A DNA stretch of 34,598 bases, from the IMG/VR virus record IMGVR_UViG_2541047807_000005. One strand, written 5' to 3'. The translations under genes and the position numbers were made by a program. Of this stretch, positions 4,267-31,434 are shown piece by piece. The notes below the pieces were generated by a model. That model did no database searches, was not told the origin of the DNA, and was given only the letters and a program-made list of their open reading frames with translations. Position 1 is the stretch's first letter. Each line of letters opens with the position of its first letter. Origin of the DNA: a virus (taxonomy: Duplodnaviria > Heunggongvirae > Uroviricota > Caudoviricetes).

Positions 4267-5120
4267 GCACCATCCTGAAATGGGCGGGTAATAAAACCAC
4301 CATTATGTCCGAACTGAAAAAATACCTTCCTGCTGGCACGCGACTGGTTGAACCTTTCGCGGGTTCTTGTGCTGTGATGATGGAGACGGATTACCCCAGC
4401 TATCTGGTTGCGGATATTAATCCTGATTTAATCAACCTCTATAAAAAGGTTGCTGCTGATTGTGAGGCGTTTATATCTCGTGCCAGAGCTTTATTTGAGG
4501 AAGCAAACAGAGAGGTGGCTTATTACAACATAAGGCAGGAGTTTAATTACTCCACTGAAATTACTGATTTCATGAAAGCGGTATATTTTCTGTATCTCAA
4601 TCGTCATGGTTACCGTGGGCTATGTCGCTATAACAAGAGCGGGTATTTCAACATTCCCTACGGTAATTATAAAAATCCGTATTTCCCTGAAAAAGAAATT
4701 CGCGCATTTGCAGAGAAAGCCCAGCGGGCAACGTTTATCTGCGCCAGCTTTGATGAAACGCTGGCGATGTTGAAGGCGGGGGATGTGGTGTATTGCGATC
4801 CGCTTTATGACGGTACGTTTTCCGGCTATCACACTGATGGCTTCACTGAAGATGACCAGTATCACCTGGCATCCGTTCTTGAACATCGATCATCTGAAGG
4901 TCATCCGGTCATTGTTTCTAACAGTGACACATCCCTGATCCGTTCGCTGTATCGCAATTTTACTCACCACTACATCAAGGCAAAACGCAGCATCGGCGTG
5001 GCAGCTGGTGAGAGTAAATCTGCAACAGAAATCATCGCTGTTTCCGGGCCGCGCTGCTGGGTAGGATTTGATCCTTTGCGTGGCGTGGATTGTTCCGTCG
5101 TGTACGGAGTGCGTGCATGA
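4263..5120 (+). CDS. dam: Dam-family DNA N6-adenine methyltransferase
   Basis: N-terminus LKWAGNK...EPFAGSCAV (SAM-binding) and catalytic-motif region VVYCDPLY; ATG 4263 with GGAGG RBS. Confidence 0.85.
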
Positions 5121-7531
5121 GCCATGCTGATATGAACAACTGCAGCGGCTTTAACGAGGTCGCCGCAGCATTCTCATGGAACAGCCCGAAAAAGGCCATT
5201 AACCCTTATCTGGACCCGGCGGAAGTTGCGCCGGTTTCTGCGCTTTCAAACCTGATCACTCTGTACGCTGCCGATAACGAGCAGGAACAACTGCGCCGCG
5301 AGGCACTGAGTGATCAGGTCTGGGAGCGTTATTTCTTTAATGAATCCCGTGATCCTGTCCAACGCGAAATGGAGCAGGATAAGCTAATTAGCCGGGCAAA
5401 GCTGGCGCATGAGCAGCAGCGTTTTAATCCAGACATGGCCATTCTGGCGGACGTCAACGCCCAGCCTTCCCATATCAGCAAGCCGCTGATGCAACGTATT
5501 AAATACTTCAGCAGCCTGGGCAGGCCAAAGGCTTATTCCCGCTATTTGCGTGAGACGATTAAGCCATGCTTGGAACGACTGGAGCATGTACGCGACAGTC
5601 AGCTATCCACTTCTTTTCGCTTTATGGCAAGCCATGAAGGGCTGGACGGCCTGCTGATCCTGCCTGAAATGAGTCAGGATCAGGTGAAACGCCTGTCCAC
5701 CTTGGTAGCTGCGCATATGAGCATGTGCCTTGATACAGCTTGTGGCGATTTGTATGCCACCGATGATGTTACGCCAGAAGAAATCCGCAAGACATGGGAA
5801 AAGGTGGCAGCGGAAACCCTGCGTCTGGATGTTATCCCGCCTGCGTTTGAGCAACTTTGTCGGAAAAGAAACCGCCGTAAACCCGTGCCTTATGAACTCA
5901 TTCCGGGTTCGCTGGCGCGTATGTTATGCGCCGACTGGTGGTATCGGAAATTATGGAAGATGCGTTGCGAATGGAGGGAAGAGCAGTTGCGTGCTGTTTG
6001 CCTGGTCAGCAAAAAAGCATCTCCCTATGTCAGCTATGAAGCCGTGATGCATAAACGTGAGCAGCGCCGTAAGTCGCTGGAGTTTTTCCGTTCTCATGAA
6101 CTGGTGAACGAAGACGGCGACACGCTGGATATGGAAGACGTGGTAAACGCCAGCAGCAGCAACCCTGCGCATCGCCGCAATGAGATGATGGCCTGTGTTA
6201 AAGGTCTGGAGCTTATCGCGGAAATGCGTGGTGACTGCGCCGTTTTCTACACCATCACCTGTCCGTCACGTTTCCATTCCACGCTAAATAACGGCAGGCC
6301 CAACCCGACCTGGACAAATGCGACGGTAAGACAAAGCAGTGATTATCTGGTCGGTATGTTTGCTGCATTTCGTAAGGCGATGCACAAAGCCGGATTACGC
6401 TGGTATGGCGTGCGGGTGGCTGAGCCGCATCATGACGGTACAGTTCACTGGCACCTGTTGTGTTTTATGCGCAAAAAAGATCGCCGCGCCATTACTGCTT
6501 TGTTGCGTAAGTTTGCCATTCGTGAAGACCGCGAGGAGCTGGGTAATAACACGGAACCACGCTTTAAGTCTGAGCTGATAAACCCGCGCAAAGGTACGCC
6601 AACAAGCTACATCGCGAAATACATCAGTAAGAACATTGACGGGCGTGGTCTGGCTGGCGAGATCAGCAAGGAAACGGGTAAATCCCTGCGTGATAACGCC
6701 GAATACGTTAATGCCTGGGCGTCTTTGCATCGTGTTCAGCAATTCCGCTTCTTTGGCATTCCGGGGCGTCAGGCTTACCGTGAACTGCGATTGCTGGCTG
6801 GTCAGGCGGCAAGGCAACAGGGGGACAAAAAAGCAGGTGCGCCGGTACTGGATAACCCGCGCCTTGATGCCATCCTGGCTGCCGCTGATGCTGGCTGTTT
6901 TGCCACCTACATCATGAAGCAGGGCGGCGTACTGGTTCCCCGCAAATATCACCTCATCAGAACCGCTTATGAAATCAACGAAGAGCCGACCGCCTATGGC
7001 GATCACGGTATTCGTATTTATGGCATCTGGTCACCCATTGCAGAGGGCAAGATCTGCACTCATGCGGTGAAGTGGAAAATGGTTCGTAAGGCCGTTGACA
7101 TTCAGGAGGCGGCAGCCGACCAGGGCGCTTGCGCCCCTTGGACTCGTGGCAATAACTGTCCCCTTGCTGAAAATTTGAACCAGCAGGAGAAAGATAAATC
7201 AGCTGATGGGGACACCAGAACGGACATTATCTGCATGGATGACAAGGAGTTGCACGATTATCTGCACAGTATGAGCAAAAAAGATCGCCGGGAACTGGCA
7301 GCAAGGTTACGCCTGGTGAAACCGAAACGGCGTAAAGACTACAAACAGCGAATTACAGACCATCAGCGACAGCAGCTTGTCTATGAACTGAAGTCCAGAG
7401 GATTTGATGGCAGCGAGAAAGAGGTCGAGTTGCTCCTTCGCGGTGGCAGTATTCCGTCAGGAGCAGGCCTGCGTATCTTCTATCGGAACCAGCGTCTGCA
7501 GGAGGATGATAAATGGCGGAACATGTATTAA
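5117..7531 (+). CDS. A: Replication initiation endonuclease gpA (rolling-circle Rep)
   Basis: 804 aa; HUH-like motif VHWHLL and active-site Tyr motif YIAKYISKN; synteny after early operon. Confidence 0.9.
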
Positions 7532-8245: not shown

Positions 8246-8986
8246 TCAGTTTTCTTTGAATTTTTCACTTAATCGTTTCGTCAATACTTCGACAGATTCT
8301 TTGCGACCGGAGAACAAGTCATTGACGACGTACTCCATAATCTCAAAAGCATCCTCAATGTCTTTGACTTTTACTTCATCGTAGGTATGGCTTCCGGCAT
8401 TTCCTAAAAATTTAATTGCCATAAGAGGTCTTGAAAACGATCCGTATAATTCAGGTAGCATCCCTAAACGGTGGTGTAGAGTTATGCGTTTGCCATTATC
8501 ATTACGTTCAGCTACATCCATAGCGGTTAGCATTCTTTCAACTGAAATTCGAATTAGGTTTGCTGCTGCGCCAGGCTGTATTAGGAAAATGGAAAATGAG
8601 GCTTCAAGCGGTTCGGTAATTTCTTCTGGGCATTTTTCAGGTATTTCGAAAGGATGCAGTGATGGGTAAAAGGTGAAAGGTCTGTGCCATTGATAGTACT
8701 CAATATCATTTCTTTCTTCATCCCAACCTTGTTCCCATCCACTCTTACCAGTACAGGCCACAACTTCACCACATTGCATTCTTGAACAGCGGGCCATGCA
8801 ACTGAAAATAGATGAATCCATTTCTAGTTCAAACCAATCTTCACTGCGGAATTTTCGGGTATCATGTGTGTCATACGAGACGAAACTTTCTTTAATGATC
8901 TGTAGGGTTTTCTGATTGCAGTTAGGGCAGGGCCACTCAACCTGCATATCGTGGAAAAACGCACCAGAGAGCTTGTGCACAGTCAT
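8246..8986 (-). CDS. Hypothetical Cys-rich protein (246 aa) at the tin/old accessory position; candidate defence gene
   Basis: ORF with GAGGAA RBS; N-terminal CPNC...C-x3-C-x4-C-x5-C cluster; AT-rich versus phage core; opposite strand to gene A. Confidence 0.6.
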   Translation of the reverse strand: MTVHKLSGAFFHDMQVEWPCPNCNQKTLQIIKESFVSYDTHDTRKFRSEDWFELEMDSSIFSCMARCSRMQCGEVVACTGKSGWEQGWDEERNDIEYYQWHRPFTFYPSLHPFEIPEKCPEEITEPLEASFSIFLIQPGAAANLIRISVERMLTAMDVAERNDNGKRITLHHRLGMLPELYGSFSRPLMAIKFLGNAGSHTYDEVKVKDIEDAFEIMEYVVNDLFSGRKESVEVLTKRLSEKFKEN

Positions 8987-9344: not shown

Positions 9345-10157
9345 ATGGGGCATGCTATGATCTTTCTAAGTCATAATCACCGTGACAAAAGGTTTGTAAG
9401 TGTTATAGCGGAAAAACTAGCAGATGTTTATGGGCGTGATAACGTATTCTACGATTCTTGGTCTATCCAACCCGGAGAGGGTATTATTGACAAGATGAAT
9501 TTAGGAATGGAGAATGTATCGTTCTTTTTCTTTTTTGTCACAGAAAATAGCTTGGCAAGTAACATGGTAAAAATGGAATGGCAAAATGCTTTAATTAAGG
9601 CATCGTCCGGGAAGTGTAAATTTATACCAATACGTTGCCAGAATATATCCTTGCCTGCTCTGCTTACTCAAACGCTATATATTGATCTTTATTCGTATGG
9701 GATCGATGTGGCAATAAGACAAATTATAGATGTCATTAATCAACAAAATACGTATATTCCTAATCCTGAGAAGTATTCAAACCTCTCCTATGATATTAAG
9801 GATGATGATGGGGGTAAGATAGTGAAATTATCAGCAATGGATTTTTTAGAACCAATTGCTGATTTTATGATGATTATGGATAATACAATTAAGCATGATG
9901 ATGTTGTTGTTATGGTCAATGGAGAAAGCTCATTCACTCAGGGGTTTATTGAAAATGCATCTTTAGAAAATGGTATGAAAGTAAGTGGTGCCACTGTTGG
10001 CCTAAATCGGGGGTTAACACCAACGATGCCAATGTATGTTTCTCTTAGGTTAAAGGATGGTTCACCTTTGAATATATTTGCGGTGCTACATCGAGTAAGT
10101 ACCGAGCGTTATGCTCCTATACCACATAAAGCCGATGATGCCTTTAGAGTAAAATAA
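9345..10157 (+). CDS. TIR-domain protein (270 aa) with uncharacterised C-terminal domain; candidate anti-phage effector
   Basis: N-terminal region IFLSHNHRDKRFV...DSWSIQPGEGIIDKM...FFFFFVTENSLASNMVKMEW matches bacterial TIR pattern; AT-rich; between cos-like site and portal gene. Confidence 0.7.
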   Translation: MGHAMIFLSHNHRDKRFVSVIAEKLADVYGRDNVFYDSWSIQPGEGIIDKMNLGMENVSFFFFFVTENSLASNMVKMEWQNALIKASSGKCKFIPIRCQNISLPALLTQTLYIDLYSYGIDVAIRQIIDVINQQNTYIPNPEKYSNLSYDIKDDDGGKIVKLSAMDFLEPIADFMMIMDNTIKHDDVVVMVNGESSFTQGFIENASLENGMKVSGATVGLNRGLTPTMPMYVSLRLKDGSPLNIFAVLHRVSTERYAPIPHKADDAFRVK

Positions 10158-18578: not shown

Positions 18579-19316
18579 TCATTCATTGTCAAATAATTTT
18601 TGCTCTTTCAATATTTGTGTCGAAAAATTATTGCTTATTAATTTTACAAGCTTGCCGCACAAATTAAATGAATATCTAAAATAATCTAAGTCAGGGATGA
18701 GGTATTCTTTTTCTTCAGAGGATATTCCTGCCTCTAATAATTTTTTTTCATATCTTTGGTCCTTCACCCAATTATTATGGACTCCTGTGTCTCGTCTTGC
18801 TTTAATTTCAATGTATTGTTTTAAGAGATGTTCTATTTTCTTTTTGTCTAAGCATAAGAGTTTGCATAATTTATTGATGTATTCTTTGGGTGATCCAAAT
18901 GTGAGACTCGCGACTCCTTCGTTGACTAGATAGTCAAAAAGTTCATCTTCAGATAATGACTTAAACACCCCATAATCACACTTAATTTTATTTAGTTTTT
19001 CTGGATTGATCCTGAAGGTCAACTTCATGATTTCAATAATGTAATCTTCAAATGCTGAAACAAGCGAACTAAAGCACAATGATGGCATATGTTTTGTTAT
19101 TAAATCATGCCGTATTCCTTTATCTGAGATTTCAGGTGAATGTTTTTCCAGAAAGCATTCAAGATTTGTATAAGCCTCATAAAGCTGAGGGTTAGTTTCC
19201 TCATTGGCGTGAGAGATGGCAATGTTTTGAAATATAATTGTTCTGAATAAAATATCAGCTTTAATAAAATATGATGATGTGATTTTATCCAGGAAGAGAT
19301 AATTATCGGAGTGCAT
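18579..19316 (-). CDS. AT-rich moron protein (245 aa) with R-x4-H HEPN-like motif; candidate abortive-infection/toxin RNase
   Basis: ORF opposite to the late operon between S and V; GAGGAA RBS; motif ARRDTGVH at residues 174-180 (coords ~18777-18797); strongly AT-rich. Confidence 0.6.
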   Translation of the reverse strand: MHSDNYLFLDKITSSYFIKADILFRTIIFQNIAISHANEETNPQLYEAYTNLECFLEKHSPEISDKGIRHDLITKHMPSLCFSSLVSAFEDYIIEIMKLTFRINPEKLNKIKCDYGVFKSLSEDELFDYLVNEGVASLTFGSPKEYINKLCKLLCLDKKKIEHLLKQYIEIKARRDTGVHNNWVKDQRYEKKLLEAGISSEEKEYLIPDLDYFRYSFNLCGKLVKLISNNFSTQILKEQKLFDNE

Positions 19317-19397: not shown

Positions 19398-19988
19398 ATG
19401 ATACAGGCCATGAACGCACAATTAACCGAAATCATGCGCCTTATCACCAACCTGATCCGCACAGGTGTAGTCACCGAAGTGGACCGGGAAAACTGGCTTT
19501 GCCGGGTGAAAACGGGCGACCTTGAAACCAACTGGATTAGCTGGCTGACGCTGCGTGCCGGGAATGCCCGCACATGGTGGCGACCATCGGAAGGTGAGCA
19601 GGTGGTGCTGCTGAGTCTGGGAGGCAATCTGGAAACCGCCTTTGCGTTGCCCGCTGTCTATTCGAATCAGTTCGCTCCACCGTCGACGTCGGCGGACGCT
19701 TGCGTGACAGAGCATCCTGACGGCGGCTGGTTTGAATATGAACCCGCCACCGGGCGCTGGTATGTCAGGGGCATCAAATCAATGGTCATTGAGGCCGCTG
19801 ACAACATCACCATGAAAACCAGTGAGTTTGTACTGGAGGCTGACCGCACGAGCATTAACAGCGAAGTGGTGATCAATGGTGGCGTTACCCAGGGCGGCGG
19901 AGCGATGAGTTCTAACGGGATCGTGGTTGATGCGCATCAGCATACTGGCGTCCTGAAAGGCGGCGATACAACCGGAGGCCCGGTATGA
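19398..19988 (+). CDS. V: Baseplate spike/assembly protein gpV (alternative start ATG 19410)
   Basis: N-terminus aligns with P2 gpV (LIRTGVVTEVD...CRVKTG); synteny. Confidence 0.85.
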   Translation: MIQAMNAQLTEIMRLITNLIRTGVVTEVDRENWLCRVKTGDLETNWISWLTLRAGNARTWWRPSEGEQVVLLSLGGNLETAFALPAVYSNQFAPPSTSADACVTEHPDGGWFEYEPATGRWYVRGIKSMVIEAADNITMKTSEFVLEADRTSINSEVVINGGVTQGGGAMSSNGIVVDAHQHTGVLKGGDTTGGPV

Positions 19989-20266
19989 CGCTTTATAGCG
20001 GGATGAACAATACCAGCGGCAAAGTCATTACTGATATTGACCATCTGCGCCAGTCGGTGCGGGACATTCTGCTGACACCGCAGGGTAGCCGTATTGCCCG
20101 TCGTGAATATGGTTCCCTGCTGTCGGCACTGATAGACCAGCCACAAAATCCAGCATTACGCCTGCAGGTCATGTCGGCAGTGTATGTGGCGCTGAGCGGG
20201 CAGCGTAATAACGGTGTGCCTGTTTCCCTTTCCGTATCAACAGGAGCAGAGAATGGCAGTGATTGA
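19985..20266 (+). CDS. W: Baseplate protein gpW (lysozyme-like fold family)
   Basis: N-terminal region resembles P2 gpW (DIDHLRQSVRDILLTPQGSRIARREYGSLL); shorter than P2 gpW. Confidence 0.75.
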   Translation: MTLYSGMNNTSGKVITDIDHLRQSVRDILLTPQGSRIARREYGSLLSALIDQPQNPALRLQVMSAVYVALSGQRNNGVPVSLSVSTGAENGSD

Positions 20267-21161: not shown

Positions 21162-21759
21162 TCTGCTGCCACCGGGTTCAACTTCACTGGAGCGCCGACT
21201 GGCGCAAACCTGTAGCGGGATTTCTGATTTGCAGGTGCCGCTGCGTGACTTGTGGAATCCGGCTACCTGTCCGGTCAGCTTCCTGCCTTATCTCGCCTGG
21301 GCGTTCTCTGTGGATCGCTGGGACGAGGGCTGGACAGAAAGCGTCAAACGCCAGGTAGTGAAGGATGCTTTTTATATTCATCAGCATAAAGGAACCACCA
21401 GTGCCGTGCGGCGGGTGGTGGAACCGTTCGGATTCCTGATCTGCATTATTGAGTGGTGGCAGACCGGAGAAACACCGGGCACGTTTCGCCTGGATATCGG
21501 CGTGCAGGACCAGGGCATCACTGAAGATACCTATCTGGAACTTGAGCGACTGATAAGCGATGCCAAACCATGTAGCCGCCACATGATCGGCATGTCCATC
21601 AATCTGCAGACCAGCGGCCCGCATTGGGTGGGAGCCGCCAGCTATCTTGGCGAAGAAATCACGATCTATCCGTATATCAACGAAACGATTATTTCCGGTG
21701 GCACCGCGCATGAAGGCGGGGCGGTCCATGTTATTGACACAATGAGAGTGAATCCATGA
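21154..21759 (+). CDS. I: Baseplate protein gpI
   Basis: 201 aa, synteny, overlaps J end and H start. Confidence 0.85.
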   Translation: MNSLLPPGSTSLERRLAQTCSGISDLQVPLRDLWNPATCPVSFLPYLAWAFSVDRWDEGWTESVKRQVVKDAFYIHQHKGTTSAVRRVVEPFGFLICIIEWWQTGETPGTFRLDIGVQDQGITEDTYLELERLISDAKPCSRHMIGMSINLQTSGPHWVGAASYLGEEITIYPYINETIISGGTAHEGGAVHVIDTMRVNP

Positions 21760-23165
21760 GCACAAAATTTTATACCCTGCTGACGGATATTGGCGCGGCG
21801 AAACTTGCCAGCGCCGCCGCGCTCGGTGTGCCGCTAAAAATTACCCATATGGCGGTGGGCGATGGCGGCGGAGTATTGCCAACGCCGGACGCAAAGCAGA
21901 CGGCACTGGTAAATGAGAAACGCCGGGCTGCGCTGAATATGCTTTATATCGACCTGCAGAACAGCAGCCAGATTATTGCTGAACAGGTGATCCCTGAAAA
22001 CGAGGGCGGTTGGTGGATACGTGAAGTGGGCCTGTTTGATGAGTCAGGGGCATTGATTGCCGTGGGCAACTGCCCGGAAAGCTATAAGCCGCAACTGGCT
22101 GAAGGCAGCGGGCGCACCCAGACCGTGCGTATGGTGTTGATTACCAGCAGCACGGACAATATCACCCTGAAAATCGACCCTGCCGTAGTGCTGGCAACCC
22201 GCAAGTATGTGGATGACAAGGCACTGGAGCTGAAGGTGTACGTGGATGACCAGCTGGCAAAACACCTTGCCGCACCGGACCCGCATTCACAATATGCACA
22301 GAAAGAAAGTCCGACGTTTACCGGGACACCAAAAGCGCCAACGCCTGCGGCAGGCAATAACACCACGCAGGTTGCGACCACTGCGTTTGTTCAGGCGGCA
22401 CTGACGGCTCTTATTAATGGTGCGCCAGCCACGCTGGACACACTGAAAGAAATAGCCGCAGCCATTAACAATGACCCGAAATTCAGTACCACCATTAATG
22501 ATGCGCTGGCACTCAAAGCGCCGCTGTCGAGTCCTGCACTTACCGGGACGCCGACAGCCCCCACGGCGGCACAGTCGGTCAACAATACACAGATTGCCAC
22601 CACGGCTTTTGTGAAATCGGCGATTGCGGCAATGGTGGGTTCTGCACCTGCTGCACTGGATACACTGAACGAACTGGCGGCGGCGCTGGGAAATGCCCCG
22701 AACTTTGCCACGACAATGTTGAATGCTCTGTCAGGTAAACAACCGCTGGACAATACGCTGACTAATTTGAGTGGAAAGGATGTAGCAGGTCTTCTCACAT
22801 ACCTTGGTTTGGGAGAAGCGGCTAAAAGGAATGTAGGTATAGGGGCGAATCAGATACCTGATATGAGCCTGTTCGCGTCAATTAATACCGTAACGGCTGC
22901 TGCGCAAAAATTTCCGTCTGGATTAATTTTACAGTGCGGTCAGTTGAATGGTGCCCCGAATGTATCTTCAACATACGGGATGAGGTTTCCGATGACGTTC
23001 TCAAGAGTCATTGCTGTCGTAGTTACATTGAACGTTACTGGCGCGGCAGGGCAGCCGACTGTATCGGCGACAAGTGTCCAGAACACTGGATTTAATATTA
23101 CGGTGTCGCCCGGTTCAGGATATGGTTCATCTGCTGATGCGTATTACATTGCAATGGGATATTAA
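21756..23165 (+). CDS. H: Tail fibre protein gpH (conserved N-terminal part, AT-rich variable C-terminal part from ~22800)
   Basis: 469 aa; Ala/Thr-rich repeats; composition shift at the candidate crossover site. Confidence 0.85.
22792..22817. other. Candidate Gin/Hin/Cin-type inversion crossover site TTCTCACATACCTTGGTTTGGGAGAA inside gene H
   Basis: 26-bp imperfect palindrome with ACC..GGTTT core resembling hix/gix/cix sites, at the constant/variable junction of the tail fibre gene. Confidence 0.45.
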
Positions 23166-23169
23166 CGAA

Positions 23170-23589
23170 ATGTCATATTTTTATTCTGCATCGACAAACG
23201 GATTTTATTCGACTGAATTTCACGGCACCAATATTCCTGATGATGCAGTGGAAATCTCGGAATCAGAGTGGAAAACACTGATTAATTCACAGAGTGTAAC
23301 AAAAATGATTACCTGTGGTGAGAACGGTCACCCTGTCATTGTTGACCGTCCTTCTCCAACACCAGAACAATTAGCCTTAATAAATAATGAAAAGAAATCT
23401 GCACTGATAGCAGAGGCAACGAATGTAATAGCGCCGCTTCAGGATGCGGTTGATTTAGATATGGCAACAGATGATGAAACGAAACTGTTACTGGCATGGA
23501 AAAAATATCGCGTGCTATTGATGCGTGTTAATACTTCAACAGCACTCGATATTGAATGGCCTACGTCTCCGGCAGTTCAGGCCCGATGA
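23170..23589 (+). CDS. G: Tail fibre assembly protein gpG (Tfa)
   Basis: ATG 23170 just after H stop; N-terminus [17 protein letters not shown] typical of Tfa chaperones. Confidence 0.75.
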
Positions 23590-24154
23590 CATCCGGCGCG
23601 GTGCTGGTATCTGTTGCCGTCACCGCATCAATGTAATCCAGCACAGCGTTAAGCCGGGTGGTTTCTGTTTGCGACAGTTTTCGCCCGGTCTGCAATTTCA
23701 ACTGAATCAGACTGATGGAAGCCATAGCAGCATCAATCAGTGACTGGCGCTGTACTTCTGCCGTTTCTACTGCGGCACCGTGTTGTGCCTCAGTATCTGT
23801 CACCCATTTCTCACCATCCCATTTATCGTATGGCGTTAACGGTGAAAGCGTGACATAACCGTCTTTGATGGCACCGATATAATCCACAGTAATAGCTGCG
23901 CCATTTTCTGTTGAGTAAACAGTCTCATTGCGATGGTCTTCTTCATGGCTCCATCCCTTGCCCGTAAATACTGCCACTTTCCCCGGAATGTTTTCGCCCG
24001 GGGCAATACCAGTGGAACAGGCGGGCATACTTACACCAGTATTAATATATTCATCAGAGCAGCCCATATACTCAGATGTTTCAGCATCATAATAAAAACA
24101 ACGCATATCGCCCGGCACTGTAGCCAGCCCATTTTCATCAAAAACAGGTTTCAT
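23561..24154 (-). CDS. Alternative tail fibre assembly protein (inverted-orientation Tfa, U-prime-like), orphan
   Basis: Tfa-like N-terminus ([29 protein letters not shown]); convergent with G, 3-prime ends overlap; no cognate alternative fibre C-terminus present. Confidence 0.7.
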
Positions 24155-24179
24155 TATTTAGCCCTCACCAGAAAGTTAA

Positions 24180-24437
24180 ATGCAATATTTTTTTTATGTC
24201 ATGGGTGCTCTGGCTGAAATGGAACGCGAACTGATAGTTGAACGCACCAGGGCAGGGCTGGCTGCAGCTCGTGCCAAAGGCAGAGTAGGTGGACGCCGTA
24301 CTAAGTTGACCACCGAACAGTGGGCACAGATTGGACGTTTACTCGAGGCCGGAGAATCAAGACAACGTATTGCACTGATTTTTGATGTGGGCGTTTCTAC
24401 CATTTATAGAAAATTTCCGGCGAATAAGAGCAATTAA
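24180..24437 (+). pseudogene. Truncated serine DNA invertase (Gin/Hin/Pin family), C-terminal ~85 aa only
   Basis: FFYVMGALAEMERELIVERTRAGLAAARAKGRVGGR... matches the C-terminal half of Gin; N-terminal catalytic domain (~100 aa incl. active-site Ser) absent. Confidence 0.8.
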
Positions 24438-24494
24438 TCGCTCTGAATCAGCATTATTTTGATTATCCCTGCAAGTAGACAAATACCCTCATTT

Positions 24495-24512
24495 TGTATG
24501 AATAACTGTACA
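24495..24512. promoter_or_regulatory. Late-promoter activator dyad TGT-N12-ACA upstream of FI
   Basis: TGTATGAATAACTGTACA centred ~85 bp upstream of FI start codon. Confidence 0.55.
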
Positions 24513-24588
24513 ACTACACTTAGCTGTTTGTCAGGCACAATCACTTCAACATAGGGCGAAGCCTAATCCAATCAGGAGGTTCGCCACT

Positions 24589-25761
24589 ATGGCTCAGGAT
24601 TACCACCACGGGGTGCGCGTTGTTGAAGTCAACGAAGGCACCCGATCCATTACCACGGAGAGCACCGCCATCGTGGGCATGGTCTGCACGGGCGATGATG
24701 CCGATGCAAAAATGTTTCCTCTTAATAAACCCGTACTGATCACTGATGTGCTGACTGCCAGCGGTAAAGCGGGTGAGTCCGGCACGCTGGCCCGTTCGCT
24801 GGATGCCATCGCTGACCAGGCAAAACCAGTGACCGTTGTTGTGCGTGTGCCGCAGGGTGAAACGGAAGAAGAAACCACGACCAATATCATCGGCGCAGTG
24901 ACTGCTGAAGGTAAAAAAACAGGCATGAAAGCCCTGTTATCTGCCCAGACACAGCTCGGCGTTAAACCGCGCATTCTCGGCGTGCCAGGTCACGATAACA
25001 AAGCCGTTGCTACTGAGTTGCTGAGCGTGGCGCAAAGCCTGCGTGGGTTTGCCTACCTGTCAGCGTATGGCTGCAAGACGGTACAGGAGGCGATCACTTA
25101 CCGTGAAAACTTCAGCCAGCGCGAAGGAATGCTGATCTGGCCCGACTTTACTGGCTGGGACACGGTGCTGAATGCCGAAGCAACGGCATATGCCACCGCT
25201 CGTGCGCTTGGTCTGCGTGCCAAAATTGATGAGCAGACCGGGTGGCACAAAAGCCTGTCCAACGTGGGCGTGAACGGTGTCACCGGAATTTCTGCAGATG
25301 TGTTCTGGGATCTGCAGGACCCGGCAACCGATGCAGGTCTGCTTAACCAGAACGATATCACCACGCTTATCCGCAAAGACGGTTTCCGCTTCTGGGGTTC
25401 CCGCTGTCTGGGCGATGATCCGCTCTTTGCCTTCGAAAACTACACCCGCACGGCGCAGGTGCTGATGGACACGATGGCAGAAGCACACATGTGGGCGGTG
25501 GATAAACCGCTTAACCCGTCGCTGGCCCGCGACATTATTGAAGGTATCCGCGCCAAAATGCGCAGCCTGGTCAGTCAGGGCTATCTCATTGGTGGTGATT
25601 GCTGGCTGGATGAGTCGGTGAACGACAAAGACACGCTGAAAGCCGGAAAACTCACCATCGACTATGACTACACGCCAGTGCCGCCACTTGAAAATCTGAT
25701 GCTGCGCCAGCGCATCACCGATCAGTACCTGGTGAATTTCGCCAGCCAGGTCAGCGCGTAA
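24589..25761 (+). CDS. FI: Tail sheath protein gpFI
   Basis: 390 aa, AGGAGG RBS, synteny and size. Confidence 0.9.
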
Positions 25762-26643: not shown

Positions 26644-26777
26644 CGGTTGACGATCTGGTGGCTGATATCGCCACCATCTTTCACTGGCCGCCATCCGTTA
26701 CTGACGTTATGCCGCTGACCGAAGTGCTGGAATGGCGGTATAAAGCGATTCAGAGAAGCGGGGCCAACGATGAGTGA
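26341..26777 (+). CDS. gpE+E-prime, predicted -1 programmed frameshift product (slip at 26598-26604)
   Basis: Slippery heptamer T TTT TTG in the E frame; -1 frame stays open to TGA at 26775-26777, overlapping T start. Confidence 0.6.
26598..26604 (+). promoter_or_regulatory. Slippery heptamer TTTTTTG for -1 ribosomal frameshift
   Basis: X XXY YYZ-type sequence in frame near 3-prime end of E, as in P2 E/E+E-prime and lambda G/GT. Confidence 0.6.
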
Positions 26778-29700
26778 TAATAACCTGCGCCTGCAGGTCA
26801 TTCTTAATGCGGTTGACAAACTCACCCGCCCATTTCGATCTGCGCAGGCCAGTTCAAGAGAACTGGCTGCTGCTGTCAAAAAATCCCGCGATGCAATAAA
26901 GCAGCTTGATCAGGCCGGGAGCAGTCTGGACAGCTTCCGAAAGCTGCAGGCAGAAAATCAGAAATTAGGCGACAGGCTGAACTATGCCCGCCAGCGTGCC
27001 AATTTGCTCAGTCAGGAACTGGGAGCGATGGGGCCGCCTTCGCAACGTCAGGTTGTCGCTCTGGGCCGTCAACGGCTGGCTGTTCAGCGCCTGGAAGAAC
27101 GCCAGAAAAAGCTGCAGCAGCAGACGGCGCTTGTGCGTGCAGAACTTTATCGTGCTGGTATTTCAGCTAATGATGGCGCCAGTGCGACGGCCCGCATTAC
27201 CCGTGAAACGATGCGTTATAACAGGCAGCTTTCTGAGCAGGAAGCGAGGTTACGACGTGTCGGGGAGCAACAGCGAAAAATGCACGCCGCCCGGGGGGCT
27301 TACGTCAGGCGTCTTGAGGTAAGGGATCGTATTGCAGGTGCTGGAGCCACCACCACGGCGGCAGGGCTGGCAATGGGCGCGCCAGTGATGGCGGCAGTAA
27401 AAAGCTATACCAGCATGGAAGATGCCATGAAAGGTGTGGCAAAGCAGGTCAATGGTCTGCGTGACGATAATGGCAACCGCACTGCACGTTTTTATGAAAT
27501 GCAGGATGCCATCAAGGCTGCCAGCGAACAGTTGCCGATGGAAAACGGTGCTGTGGACTTCGCCGCACTGGTTGAAGGTGGTGCGCGCATGAACGTCTCA
27601 AACCCTGATGACAGCTGGGAAGACCAGAAACGTGACCTGCTGGCCTTCGCCAGTACGGCTGCGAAGGCGGCAACAGCCTTTGAGCTGCCAGCGGATGAAC
27701 TGTCAGAAAGTCTGGGGAAAATCGCCCAGCTCTACAAAATACCTACCCGCAATATTGAACAGCTCGGCGATGCGCTGAACTATCTGGATGATAACGCCAT
27801 GTCGAAAGGGGCGGACATCATTGATGTGATGCAACGTCTGGGCGGTGTGGCTGACCGTCTGGATTATCGTAAAGCGGCGGCACTGGGTTCCACCTTTCTG
27901 ACACTGAGCGCTGCGCCGGAGGTTGCAGCCAGTGCAGCAAACGCGATGGTGCGTGAATTGTCCATTGCCACCATGCAAAGCAAGAGTTTCTTTGAAGGGA
28001 TGAATCTGCTGAAACTCAATCCTGAAGTGATTGAAAAGCAGATGACGAAGGATGCGATGGGAACTATCCAGCGTGTGCTGGAGAAGGTGAACGCACTGCC
28101 GCAGGACAAGCGTCTGTCTGCCATGACCATGTTGTTTGGTAAAGAGTTTGGCGATGACGCAGCGAAACTGGCAAACAACCTGCCGGAACTGCAGCGCCAG
28201 TTAAAACTGACAGCGGGCAATGATGCGCTCGGCTCCATGCAGAAAGAATCCGACATTAACAAGGATTCACTTTCTGCGCAGTGGTTGCTGGTCAAAACCA
28301 CTGCGCAGAATACCTTCAGCAGCCTGGGCGAAACGCTGCGCCAGCCGCTGATGGATATTCTGTACACGGTGAAAAGCGTCACGGGGGCGTTGCGTCGCTG
28401 GGTGGAAGCTAACCCGGAACTGACGGGCACACTGATGAAAGTAGCAGCGGTTGTGGCTGCCGTTACCGTGGGCCTCGGCACCCTGGCTGTGGTGTTGGCT
28501 GCAGTGCTGGGGCCGCTGGCAGTGATCCGTCTGGGATTCTCTGTGCTGGGTATCAAAACGTTACCTTCCGTTACGGCAGCAGTAACACGAACCAGCAGCG
28601 CGTTGTCCTGGCTGGCTGGCGCTCCACTGGCAGTGCTGCGACGCGGGCTTGCTTCATCGGGTAACGCAGCGGGTTTACTTACTGCGCCGTTGTCGTCTTT
28701 GCGCCGTATGGCATCACTGACGGGAAATGTCCTGAAAACTGTAGCAGGTGCGCCGGTTGCACTATTGCGGTCCGGTTTATCCGCTTTACGTGCTGTTGCT
28801 GTGATGTTTATGAATCCTCTGGCGGTACTGCGCGGTGGACTGGCTGCCGCAGGCGCGGTGCTTCGTGTGCTGGCATCTGGTCCGCTGGCGATGCTGCGCG
28901 TTGCCCTGTATGCCGTATCTGGTCTGTTAGGTGCTCTGCTCAGTCCGATAGGTCTTGTGGTTACTGCACTGACGGGTGTGGCGCTGGTTGTCTGGAAATA
29001 CTGGCAACCCATCACCGCATTTCTCGGTGGCGTGGTGGAAGGATTCAAAGCGGCGGCAGGTCCCATCAGTGCAGCATTCGAACCACTTAAGCCTGTGTTT
29101 CAGTGGATTGGCGACAAAGTGCAGGCGCTGTGGGGCTGGTTTACTGATCTGCTGACGCCCGTTAAGTCGACCTCTGCTGAACTGCAGAGCGCAGCGGCAA
29201 TGGGGCAACGATTCGGGGAGGCACTGGCGGAAGGACTGAATATGGTCATGCATCCGCTGGACTCCCTGAAATCCGGCGTATCCTGGTTGCTGGAAAAACT
29301 CGGCATTGTCAGTAAAGAGGCCGCAAAGGCAAAACTGCCGGAAAGCGTGACGCGTCAGCAACCTGCGACGGTGAATGCAGACGGCAAAGTGATGATACCA
29401 TCGGGTGGTTTTCCGTCATGGGGATATGGCTTTGCGGGGATGTATGACAGCGGCGGCTATATCCCGCGCGGGCAGTTTGGCATCGTCGGTGAAAACGGGC
29501 CTGAAATTATCAACGGCCCGGCAAATGTGACCAGCCGGAAAAATACAGCTGCACTGGCTGCCGTTGTTGCCGGAATGATGGGCGTTGCTGCCGCGCCTGC
29601 AGAGCTTCCACCGTTACATCCTTTGGCACTTCCCGCGAAAGGCGGCGAAGCGATGGTGAGTCGTGCAGCCACTGTGCCGCCCGTTCAACGGATTGAGGCA

Positions 29701-29847
29701 CCGACGCAGATCATCATTCAGACGCAGCCAGGACAAAGTGCGCAGGATATTGCGCGGGAGGTGGCCCGCCAGCTTGATGAACGTGAACGCAGGCTGAAGG
29801 CAAAAGCCAGGAGTAACTACAGCGATCAGGGGGGATACGACGCATGA
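26770..29847 (+). CDS. T: Tail tape measure protein gpT
   Basis: 1025 aa, coiled-coil N-terminal region, hydrophobic Ala/Leu/Val-rich central region; synteny. Confidence 0.9.
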   Translation: MSDNNLRLQVILNAVDKLTRPFRSAQASSRELAAAVKKSRDAIKQLDQAGSSLDSFRKLQAENQKLGDRLNYARQRANLLSQELGAMGPPSQRQVVALGRQRLAVQRLEERQKKLQQQTALVRAELYRAGISANDGASATARITRETMRYNRQLSEQEARLRRVGEQQRKMHAARGAYVRRLEVRDRIAGAGATTTAAGLAMGAPVMAAVKSYTSMEDAMKGVAKQVNGLRDDNGNRTARFYEMQDAIKAASEQLPMENGAVDFAALVEGGARMNVSNPDDSWEDQKRDLLAFASTAAKAATAFELPADELSESLGKIAQLYKIPTRNIEQLGDALNYLDDNAMSKGADIIDVMQRLGGVADRLDYRKAAALGSTFLTLSAAPEVAASAANAMVRELSIATMQSKSFFEGMNLLKLNPEVIEKQMTKDAMGTIQRVLEKVNALPQDKRLSAMTMLFGKEFGDDAAKLANNLPELQRQLKLTAGNDALGSMQKESDINKDSLSAQWLLVKTTAQNTFSSLGETLRQPLMDILYTVKSVTGALRRWVEANPELTGTLMKVAAVVAAVTVGLGTLAVVLAAVLGPLAVIRLGFSVLGIKTLPSVTAAVTRTSSALSWLAGAPLAVLRRGLASSGNAAGLLTAPLSSLRRMASLTGNVLKTVAGAPVALLRSGLSALRAVAVMFMNPLAVLRGGLAAAGAVLRVLASGPLAMLRVALYAVSGLLGALLSPIGLVVTALTGVALVVWKYWQPITAFLGGVVEGFKAAAGPISAAFEPLKPVFQWIGDKVQALWGWFTDLLTPVKSTSAELQSAAAMGQRFGEALAEGLNMVMHPLDSLKSGVSWLLEKLGIVSKEAAKAKLPESVTRQQPATVNADGKVMIPSGGFPSWGYGFAGMYDSGGYIPRGQFGIVGENGPEIINGPANVTSRKNTAALAAVVAGMMGVAAAPAELPPLHPLALPAKGGEAMVSRAATVPPVQRIEAPTQIIIQTQPGQSAQDIAREVARQLDERERRLKAKARSNYSDQGGYDA

Positions 29848-30329
29848 TGATGGTGCTGGGATTGTACGTGTTTATGCTGCGCACCGTGCCGTATCAGGAA
29901 CTGCAGTATCAACGCAGCTGGCGACATGCGGCAAACAGCCGGGTAAACCGTCGTCCGTCCACGCAGTTTCTGGGACCGGAAAACGATATGCTGACGCTTT
30001 CCGGTGTTCTTATGCCGGAGATAACAGGCGGCAGGCTGTCGTTGCTGGCACTGGAGCAGATGGCAGAACAGGGGAAAGCATGGCCCCTGATTGAAGGCAG
30101 CGGCACGATTTACGGCATGTATGTGATTGAGGGACTGAATCAGACTAAAACGGAGTTTTTCCGCGACGGTATGCCGCGCCGGATTGAGTTCACCCTGTCG
30201 CTAAAACGGGTGGATGAATCCCTGTCCGATATGTTCGGTGATCTCAGTACTCAACTGAATAATCTGCAGGACACGGCAACGTCTGCTTTAAGCGATATCA
30301 GTAAAACGGTGGGAGGGCTGCTGTCGTGA
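29844..30329 (+). CDS. U: Tail protein gpU
   Basis: 161 aa, overlaps T stop, synteny. Confidence 0.8.
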   Translation: MMMVLGLYVFMLRTVPYQELQYQRSWRHAANSRVNRRPSTQFLGPENDMLTLSGVLMPEITGGRLSLLALEQMAEQGKAWPLIEGSGTIYGMYVIEGLNQTKTEFFRDGMPRRIEFTLSLKRVDESLSDMFGDLSTQLNNLQDTATSALSDISKTVGGLLS

Positions 30330-31434
30330 ATTTCAGCTCTGAACTGCTTAACAAAGGCAACAAAACTCCGGCATTCAGCATCAGTGTTGAGGGCAGGGAT
30401 ATCACCACTGTGCTGGACAACCGCCTGATGGGGCTTACGCTGACGGATAACCGGGGCTTTGAAGCGGACCAGCTTGATCTGGAGCTGGACGACGCTGATG
30501 GAAAAATCGTGCTGCCGCGCCGTGGTGCGGTCATTACGCTGGCGCTGGGCTGGAAGGGACAGCCGCTTTTCCCGAAAGGGGCATTCACGGTGGACGAGAT
30601 TGAACACACTGGCGCACCGGACCGCCTGACCATCCGGGCGCGAAGTGCTGATTTTCGGGAAACGCTGAATACCCGCCGTGAAAAATCGTGGCACAAGACC
30701 ACGGTCGGGGAAGTGGTGAAGGAAATAGCTGCGCGGCACAAACTGAAGATGGCACTGGGTAAAGACCTGTCGGATAAGCCCGTGGAACATATAGACCAGA
30801 CCAATGAGAGTGACGGCAGTTTTCTGATGCGGCTGGCGCGCCAGTACGGTGCTATTGCGTCGGTGAAAAATGGCAATCTGTTATTCATCCGGCAGGGACA
30901 GGGCAAAAGCGCCAGCGGTAAACCTCTGCCGGTGATCACTATCACACGCAAGGACGGCGACAGTCACCGCTTTACCCTGGCAGATCGCGGAGCCTATACG
31001 GGCGTAATTGCCAGTTGGTTGCATACCCGCGAACCCGCGAACCCGCGAAGAAAGAAAGCACCACGGTGAAGCGTAAGCGCAGGACCGCAAAGCAGAAGAA
31101 AGAGCCGGAAGCGAAGCAGGGCGATTACCTGGTGGGTACGGATGAAAACGTGCTGGTACTTAATCGCACTTATGCCAACCGGAGCAACGCCGAACGGGCA
31201 GCGAAAATGCAGTGGGAACGCCTGCAACGCGGCGTTGCATCATTCTCGCTACAACCGGCGGAAGGGCGGGCAGATCTCTACACAGAAATGCCTGTGAAGG
31301 TCAGTGGCTTTAAACAGCCGATAGATGATGCGGAATGGACCATTACGACTCTGACGCATACCGTCAGCCCGGATAACGGTTTTACGACCAGTCTGGAGCT
31401 TGAAGTGAGGATTGATGATTTCGAAATGGAATGA
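30326..31434 (+). pseudogene. D: Tail protein gpD, interrupted by frameshift at an 8-bp tandem repeat (two ORFs 30326..31069 and 31015..31434)
   Basis: The two ORFs together equal P2 gpD length (~386 aa) and both resemble gpD; removing one CCCGCGAA copy fuses the frames. Confidence 0.75.
31026..31049 (+). repeat. Tandem octamer CCCGCGAA x3 within gene D
   Basis: Three perfect direct copies at 31026-31033, 31034-31041, 31042-31049. Confidence 0.9.

Follow-up and report, generated by a model that had tools for sequence, protein, structure and literature searches.

A P2-like prophage of Escherichia coli carrying the probable remnant of a dead tail-fibre switch

Can a prophage that possesses a tail-fibre gene, two tail-fibre assembly chaperone genes facing each other and the last part of an invertase gene still change its fibre by inverting a segment of its DNA? 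The question is raised by a 34,598-nucleotide stretch of viral DNA (IMG/VR record IMGVR_UViG_2541047807_000005, referred to here as the window and analysed over its whole length), which is a P2-like (Peduoviridae) prophage of E. coli adjoining ybjL. It is 99.96–100% identical to prophages of strains Rb-23, TUM14697 and 1002W03, and about 98% identical to a prophage of SCU-115. The P2 gene order V-W-J-I-H-G-[cargo]-FI-FII-E-T-U-D-ogr could be followed through it, using the RefSeq annotation of an identical prophage, the P2 record and Pfam matches for H, G and FI. The locus that concerns us lies between G and FI, where P2 has fun(Z); an earlier reading of the DNA from its sequence alone (the sequence-only reading) had placed it at this Z/fun cargo position, and correctly so. 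Invertases and fibre cassettes are reported to be frequent cargo of this hotspot (bioRxiv 10.1101/2024.10.15.618418).

Our answer is that the locus is, with a probability of roughly 0.9, the dead remnant of a tail-fibre switch of the Mu G-segment type. In its intact form, a Gin-family serine invertase encoded just to the right of the segment would recombine two inverted 26-bp sites, one inside H and the other just upstream of the invertase gene, and inversion of the segment of 1.5–1.9 kb would couple the constant part of H with one of two pairs, tip A with chaperone A or tip B with chaperone B. Some 0.8 kb would then have been lost through illegitimate joining at a short T run: tip B almost entirely, the right-hand site, the promoter region of the invertase gene and the first c. 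103 invertase codons. H would have been left fixed to a Gp53-like tip and the forward chaperone, while the inverted chaperone gene and the invertase tail would have become unexpressed relics, now beginning to gather damage. The features on which this account is built are collected in Table 1.

Table 1. Features of the tail-fibre locus and its right-hand edge (positions are those of the window)
Feature	Position	Strand	Evidence
Tail-fibre gene H, 469 aa; constant N-terminal part joined in frame to the expressed variable tip	21756–23165	+	Phage_tail_fib N-terminal domain, E 6.4e-64; Gp53-like_C, E 1.6e-12
Only 26-bp invertase crossover site left (gix/hix/cix-type), where the constant and variable parts of H meet	22792–22817		Unique in the window; likeness to the left site of relatives and to Mu gix
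Variable fibre tip, probably locked on; Gp53-like C-terminal domain	22818–23165	+	Pfam PF21882, residues 385–469
Forward tail-fibre assembly chaperone (P2 G / Mu U equivalent)	23170–23589	+	Caudo_TAP, E 1.3e-31
Inverted orphaned tail-fibre assembly chaperone (Mu U' equivalent), 197 aa	23561–24154	-	Caudo_TAP, E 2.3e-24
Last 11 codons and stop of the missing alternative fibre tip (KNIAFNFLVRAK, then stop)	24154–24190	-	Translation match to the C-terminus of the inverted tip of 503025
Probable deletion junction, with short T-run microhomology	24188–24190		Three-way alignment
3' remnant of a Gin-family serine invertase, about residues 104–185 of 188 (end of helix E and HTH DNA-binding domain)	24189–24437	+	Pfam, Gin 3uj3, codon comparison, RefSeq
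FI tail sheath gene, right-hand edge of the G–FI (Z/fun) hotspot	24589–25761	+	Phage_sheath_1, E 1.5e-32; P2 order H-G-fun(Z)-FI

The surviving site and genes

Within H (annotated 'phage tail protein' in Rb-23), the constant and variable parts meet at the 26-bp sequence TTCTCACATACCTTGGTTTGGGAGAA, the two 12-nt halves of which are alike at 10 of 12 positions. The sequence-only reading had taken this palindrome for a gix/hix-like crossover site, and comparison with other phages bears it out: there are only one or two mismatches to the left crossover site of intact relatives, which occupies the same place in H, and 17 of the 26 positions, in the same layout, are shared with the sites at the two annotated boundaries of the G segment of Mu (TTATCCAAAACCTCGGTTTACAGGAA and its inverted copy, both read from the Mu record with its annotation). 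Mosaic parts of the sequence likewise meet here. The fibre tip and forward chaperone gene show 95–98% nucleotide identity to those of the Shigella phages SfI, SfII, SfIV and SfV, but this homology begins only at 22801 and extends rightward, and the match to phage Cartapus and to the prophage of strain 503025 reaches only as far as 22865.

The forward chaperone gene G and the inverted orphan gene beyond it are both as first read, scoring 109.9 and 86.5 bits respectively with PF02413 (Caudo_TAP), the gathering cut-off of which is 22.1 bits. In RefSeq the forward ORF is slightly longer, being given an upstream ATG start. The inverted ORF is intact, its 3' end overlapping the 3' end of G by 29 bp, and it shares 94.4% identity with its counterpart in phage 500465-2 and strain 503025. 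An ORF in this state could point to a recent deletion, or to continued use of the gene.

The invertase is represented by a plus-strand ORF of 85 codons (24180–24437), which covers positions 112–144 of the 145 in the Resolvase profile and then an HTH_7 domain (E 2.9e-15). It aligns to residues 102–184 of Mu Gin (3uj3, E 2.5e-30) and to the DNA-binding domain of Hin (1hcr, E 2.2e-09), with the C-terminal helix-turn-helix present. The catalytic domain with its N-terminal active-site serine is absent, the homology starting at about residue 104; intact relatives begin MLIGYVRVSTNDQ and have the conserved serine in this N-terminal region, which has gone from the window. Moreover, tblastn with three intact invertases found the remnant alone in the whole window. 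Thus the earlier description of a Gin/Hin-family invertase reduced to its C-terminal 85 or so residues, and deprived of its catalytic domain, was accurate. The ATG at 24180 appears to be fortuitous, since it comes from the other side of the junction and true invertase homology starts at 24189.

Even the surviving part is damaged: codon comparison revealed a change of proline to threonine in the GGRRPKL arm and a premature stop, which look like the results of drift. A scan of positions 23000–24650 for promoters and terminators gave nothing above shuffle expectation to drive either the remnant or the inverted chaperone gene, and both are probably silent. The remnant is labelled 'recombinase family protein; incomplete; missing N-terminus' in RefSeq; it is therefore already annotated in public E. 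coli genomes, and is a commonplace case, reduced to a pseudogene, of a system long known.

Intact relatives and the breakpoint

What has been lost can be read from P2-like prophages in which the module is intact, a comparison proposed with the sequence-only reading: the ML35 prophage and Cartapus have every part that is missing. The ML35 prophage is 95.4% identical to the window and collinear with it over 21700–23842, and again from 24189 onward. Between these two stretches ML35 has a fibre tip in inverse orientation, a further 26-bp site, also inverted (4912–4937 in its own numbering), and a full 188-aa invertase (4993–5559). The inverted cassette of ML35 differs from that of the window, and ML35 serves here as the best intact comparator. 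The layout is the same in Cartapus and in the plasmid-prophage p13P477T-2. The second, inverted site copy of intact relatives, TTTTC[A/T]TAAACGTTGGTTTGGGAGAA, lies just upstream of the full-length invertase gene.

That such modules do invert in nature is evident from 500465-2 and the 503025 prophage, which are 99.95% identical and differ solely by the precise inversion of a 1.8-kb segment between their two 26-bp sites, one endpoint being the homologue of the site in the window. It is only for these intact relatives that both orientations, with their endpoints at the sites, were found; in all five copies of the window's lineage the orientation is identical. P2-like prophages with invertible fibre segments have already been described, and inversion in those of E. 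coli (EPEC) has been documented by sequencing (Goldberg et al., 2014; PMC4272514).

One of the related P2-like elements, p13P477T-2 (CP019275.1, a 37-kb circular plasmid record), retains both crossover sites, and its invertase gene (4615–5173) is frameshifted and has acquired a stop codon, an independent route to the loss of the same switch.

The breakpoint in the window was located by a three-way alignment. On the left, homology to the cassette of 500465-2 and 503025 runs through the inverted chaperone gene and up to 24190; on the right, homology to the invertase of Cartapus and ML35 starts at 24189. The join thus falls in a run of T residues, with one to three bases of microhomology. The sequence-only reading had postulated a deletion that fused the start of the inverted chaperone gene (c. 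24154) to the middle of the invertase gene (c. 24185), with the alternative fibre C-terminus missing. A deletion fusion of this kind fits the alignment, but the breakpoint lies past the start codon of the chaperone gene, and the alternative tip, though nearly all lost, has left a stub: its last 11 codons and stop match the end of the intact inverted fibre tip of 503025 (RPRNIAFNFLVRAK, then stop).

Compared with intact relatives, about 0.8 kb is missing (a size estimated from the coordinates of the relatives). The missing DNA comprises the alternative fibre tip apart from the stub, the right-hand crossover site, the spacer between this site and the invertase gene, and 309 nt of the invertase gene itself, including its start, which amounts to approximately the first 103 codons for the 188-residue protein. 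Deletion by the invertase was considered and rejected, as neither breakpoint is at a crossover site and the junction is one of plain T-run microhomology.

How did the join come about? We infer a deletion in place; an exact intact ancestor (having tip A, chaperone A, chaperone B and the invertase type of the window) is absent among 5426 complete E. coli genomes. The same absence of any intact genome with the cassette combination of the window would be expected if, instead, illegitimate recombination between two phages had linked a chaperone and tip cassette of the 500465-2 type with an invertase gene of the ML35/Cartapus type, at its middle, in which case the lineage would never have had a working module. 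The different affinities of the two flanks are in keeping with such an origin: DNA to the left of the junction resembles 500465-2 and 503025 at 94.4%, whereas that to the right resembles Cartapus and ML35 at 95–96% and, over a short stretch, the 503025 invertase at only about 83%. Cassette mosaicism around such sites is usual, however, so that an intact ancestor that has escaped sampling is equally plausible, and both flanks have exactly the order and orientation of an intact module from which an interior part is missing. We therefore regard a join between two phages as conceivable but rather unlikely. The functional outcome is identical whether the join was a deletion in place or the meeting of two phages.

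Loss of inversion and the sequence of decay

Inversion by the Gin/Hin family requires two sites, four invertase subunits and an enhancer bound by Fis (PMC3798978; PMC2427008). In the Hin system the Fis enhancer is about 100 bp from one hix site (PMC3798978), and the region equivalent to its location, at the 5' end of the invertase gene, is deleted in the window. The second crossover site, present in intact relatives, is missing as the sequence-only reading had it. No other site was found in the whole window at up to three mismatches (with none expected from shuffled sequences), nor did a second one appear at up to seven mismatches using the left site, the right site or Mu gix as queries, or with a degenerate pattern for the family; furthermore, the site region has no inverted-repeat partner anywhere in the 34.6 kb. 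A segment left with a single site, and lacking its enzyme, has no means of inverting. Since neither a second site nor an invertase is available in cis, and the family needs two sites, a tetramer and an enhancer, no inversion is to be expected and H should stay with its Gp53-like tip. Host range is probably fixed as a result, as the sequence-only reading had proposed.

Might the relics nevertheless not be inert? A truncated invertase translated from the ATG at 24180 would consist of the end of helix E and the helix-turn-helix, and could act as a dominant-negative blocker, binding to 26-bp sites and damping inversion at those of its own and other prophages. Alternatively, an invertase acting in trans could recombine the lone site with the sites of other prophages, giving rise to large chromosomal inversions. 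We consider either activity very improbable.

Hardly more credible, and if anything less so, is the idea that the module still switches, by means of an invertase supplied in trans from another prophage and a cryptic, diverged second site. Gin/Hin-family invertases are generally described as able to substitute for each other in trans, and some carrier genomes do contain further P2-like modules, such as those indicated by the three to four matching places in 1002W03. Yet the searches just described revealed neither a diverged second site of either type nor an inverted-repeat partner in the window, and there is no alternative fibre tip remaining that could be brought into use.

The exact junction is present in four of the 5426 complete E. 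coli genomes, with ybjL as the neighbour in every case. These four assemblies, from Japan and the USA, were independently sequenced and are 98.5–100% identical to the window. It could be supposed that the real module is intact and that an assembly collapse dropped the inverted tip, the second site and the 5' end of the invertase gene, as inverted repeats and mixed orientations of invertible segments can confuse assemblers; but the copies are about 2% diverged around the junction, the invertase remnant is not the same in all of them and the breakpoints are outside the inverted repeats, and the occurrence of one and the same junction in four independent complete assemblies therefore excludes local misassembly to within the smallest of doubts.

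The carriers also allow the lesions to be placed in order. The loss of about 0.8 kb is common to every one of them, including SCU-115, in which W, T and D are annotated as intact and the remnant has its normal stop codon and lacks the proline-to-threonine change. This change and the premature stop are found in the three Japanese copies and the window, as is a frameshift of gpD by tandem duplication of 8 bp; the window alone has, in addition, lost 78 bp of gpW in frame, between direct repeats of 11 bp. Because the switch deletion is present in SCU-115 with W, T and D annotated as intact, and the later lesions are in sub-lineages, the switch deletion came first. This suggests that the phage may have persisted for some time with a fixed fibre, and that the window copy is no longer a viable phage as a consequence of the later lesions. 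The locking of host range is thus partly moot in the window copy, because tail genes D and W are damaged too: the expression 'locked host range' would be historically right, but of little present consequence.

The individual tail-gene lesions can be described as follows. The gpW gene (19985–20266) specifies 93 aa, compared with 119 aa in all four reference copies; the deletion point is at 20186–20196, between two copies of the 11-bp repeat GTGGCGCTGAG, and the Pfam GPW_gp25 score of the product (26.0) is under the family cut-off of 27.2. The gpD gene (30326–31434) is split into two ORFs (30326–31069 and 31015–31434), and differs from the intact gene of SCU-115 by the 8-bp tandem duplication (ACCCGCGA, near 31020–31035) and a 3-bp deletion; RefSeq gives it as 'frameshifted' in the three Japanese strains. 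The tape-measure gene, gpT (26770–29847), is intact in the window (1025 aa) and annotated as frameshifted in Rb-23, TUM14697 and 1002W03. The sole difference seen from Rb-23 is one base missing in a GGGG run, which could be real or a homopolymer error in the three assemblies.

Elsewhere in the window, we draw attention to the P2 old/tin hotspot (between gene A plus a DinI-like gene and the portal gene), which holds two cargo genes, 8246–8986 on the minus strand and 9357–10157 on the plus strand. One cargo protein is a DUF4145 protein with a weak PADLOC match to PD-T7-4 (E 1.6e-05), and another has a TIR domain (TIR_2, E 3.9e-23) and weak matches to TIR-NLR and ThsB; judged by these similarities, the pair looks like a candidate anti-phage defence. 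A further piece of cargo, an ORF of 245 aa on the minus strand (18579–19316), between the virion-morphogenesis gene and baseplate gene V, has no match in Pfam or PADLOC, and in SCU-115 it is split into two ORFs.

What the locus offers is a clean, datable example of the dying of a phage host-range switch, with little importance beyond annotation. In that respect it does carry a lesson for host-range prediction and prophage typing, where two chaperone genes and a match to 'recombinase' are no proof of a working switch: pipelines need to check both crossover sites and the catalytic domain before a switch is called functional.

Comparison with known inversion systems

In its position the locus corresponds to the Z/fun hotspot of P2, but where P2 carries fun(Z), the window has no fun(Z) homologue, and its cargo is the debris of a fibre switch, with no defence gene.

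The locus had been called shufflon-like in the sequence-only reading, and it is true that in the R64-type shufflon (Rci), as here, DNA inversion varies the C-terminus of a surface adhesin. Shufflons, however, use a tyrosine recombinase (Rci) acting on many sfx sites that bound several segments, whereas the remnant in the window is of the serine family and its relatives have two sites and one segment. The name therefore has to be given up in favour of a single-segment switch of the Gin/Hin/Cin/Pin type, worked by a serine invertase.

The closest counterparts are the intact modules of other Peduoviridae: those of the ML35 prophage, Cartapus (an Elveevirus), 500465-2 (a Gemsvirus) and the EPEC prophages. 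These resemble the window in lying between G and FI, in the constant part of H and in the left site (at one mismatch), and the 3' end of the invertase gene is 95–96% identical; the window differs in being without some 0.8 kb, and in the additional damage to its remnant.

More widely, the arrangement is that of the Mu G segment with Gin, a kind of system to which the P1 C segment with Cin, the e14 P segment with Pin, and Salmonella Hin also belong. The host phage of the G segment is Mu-like and that of the window P2-like, and the window is deprived by deletion of its inverted tip, of the second site and of the 5' half of the invertase gene, which encodes the catalytic domain. The order shared with Mu runs from the constant fibre through the 26-bp site, the tip, the chaperone, the inverted chaperone, the inverted tip and the inverted site to an invertase gene on the plus strand.
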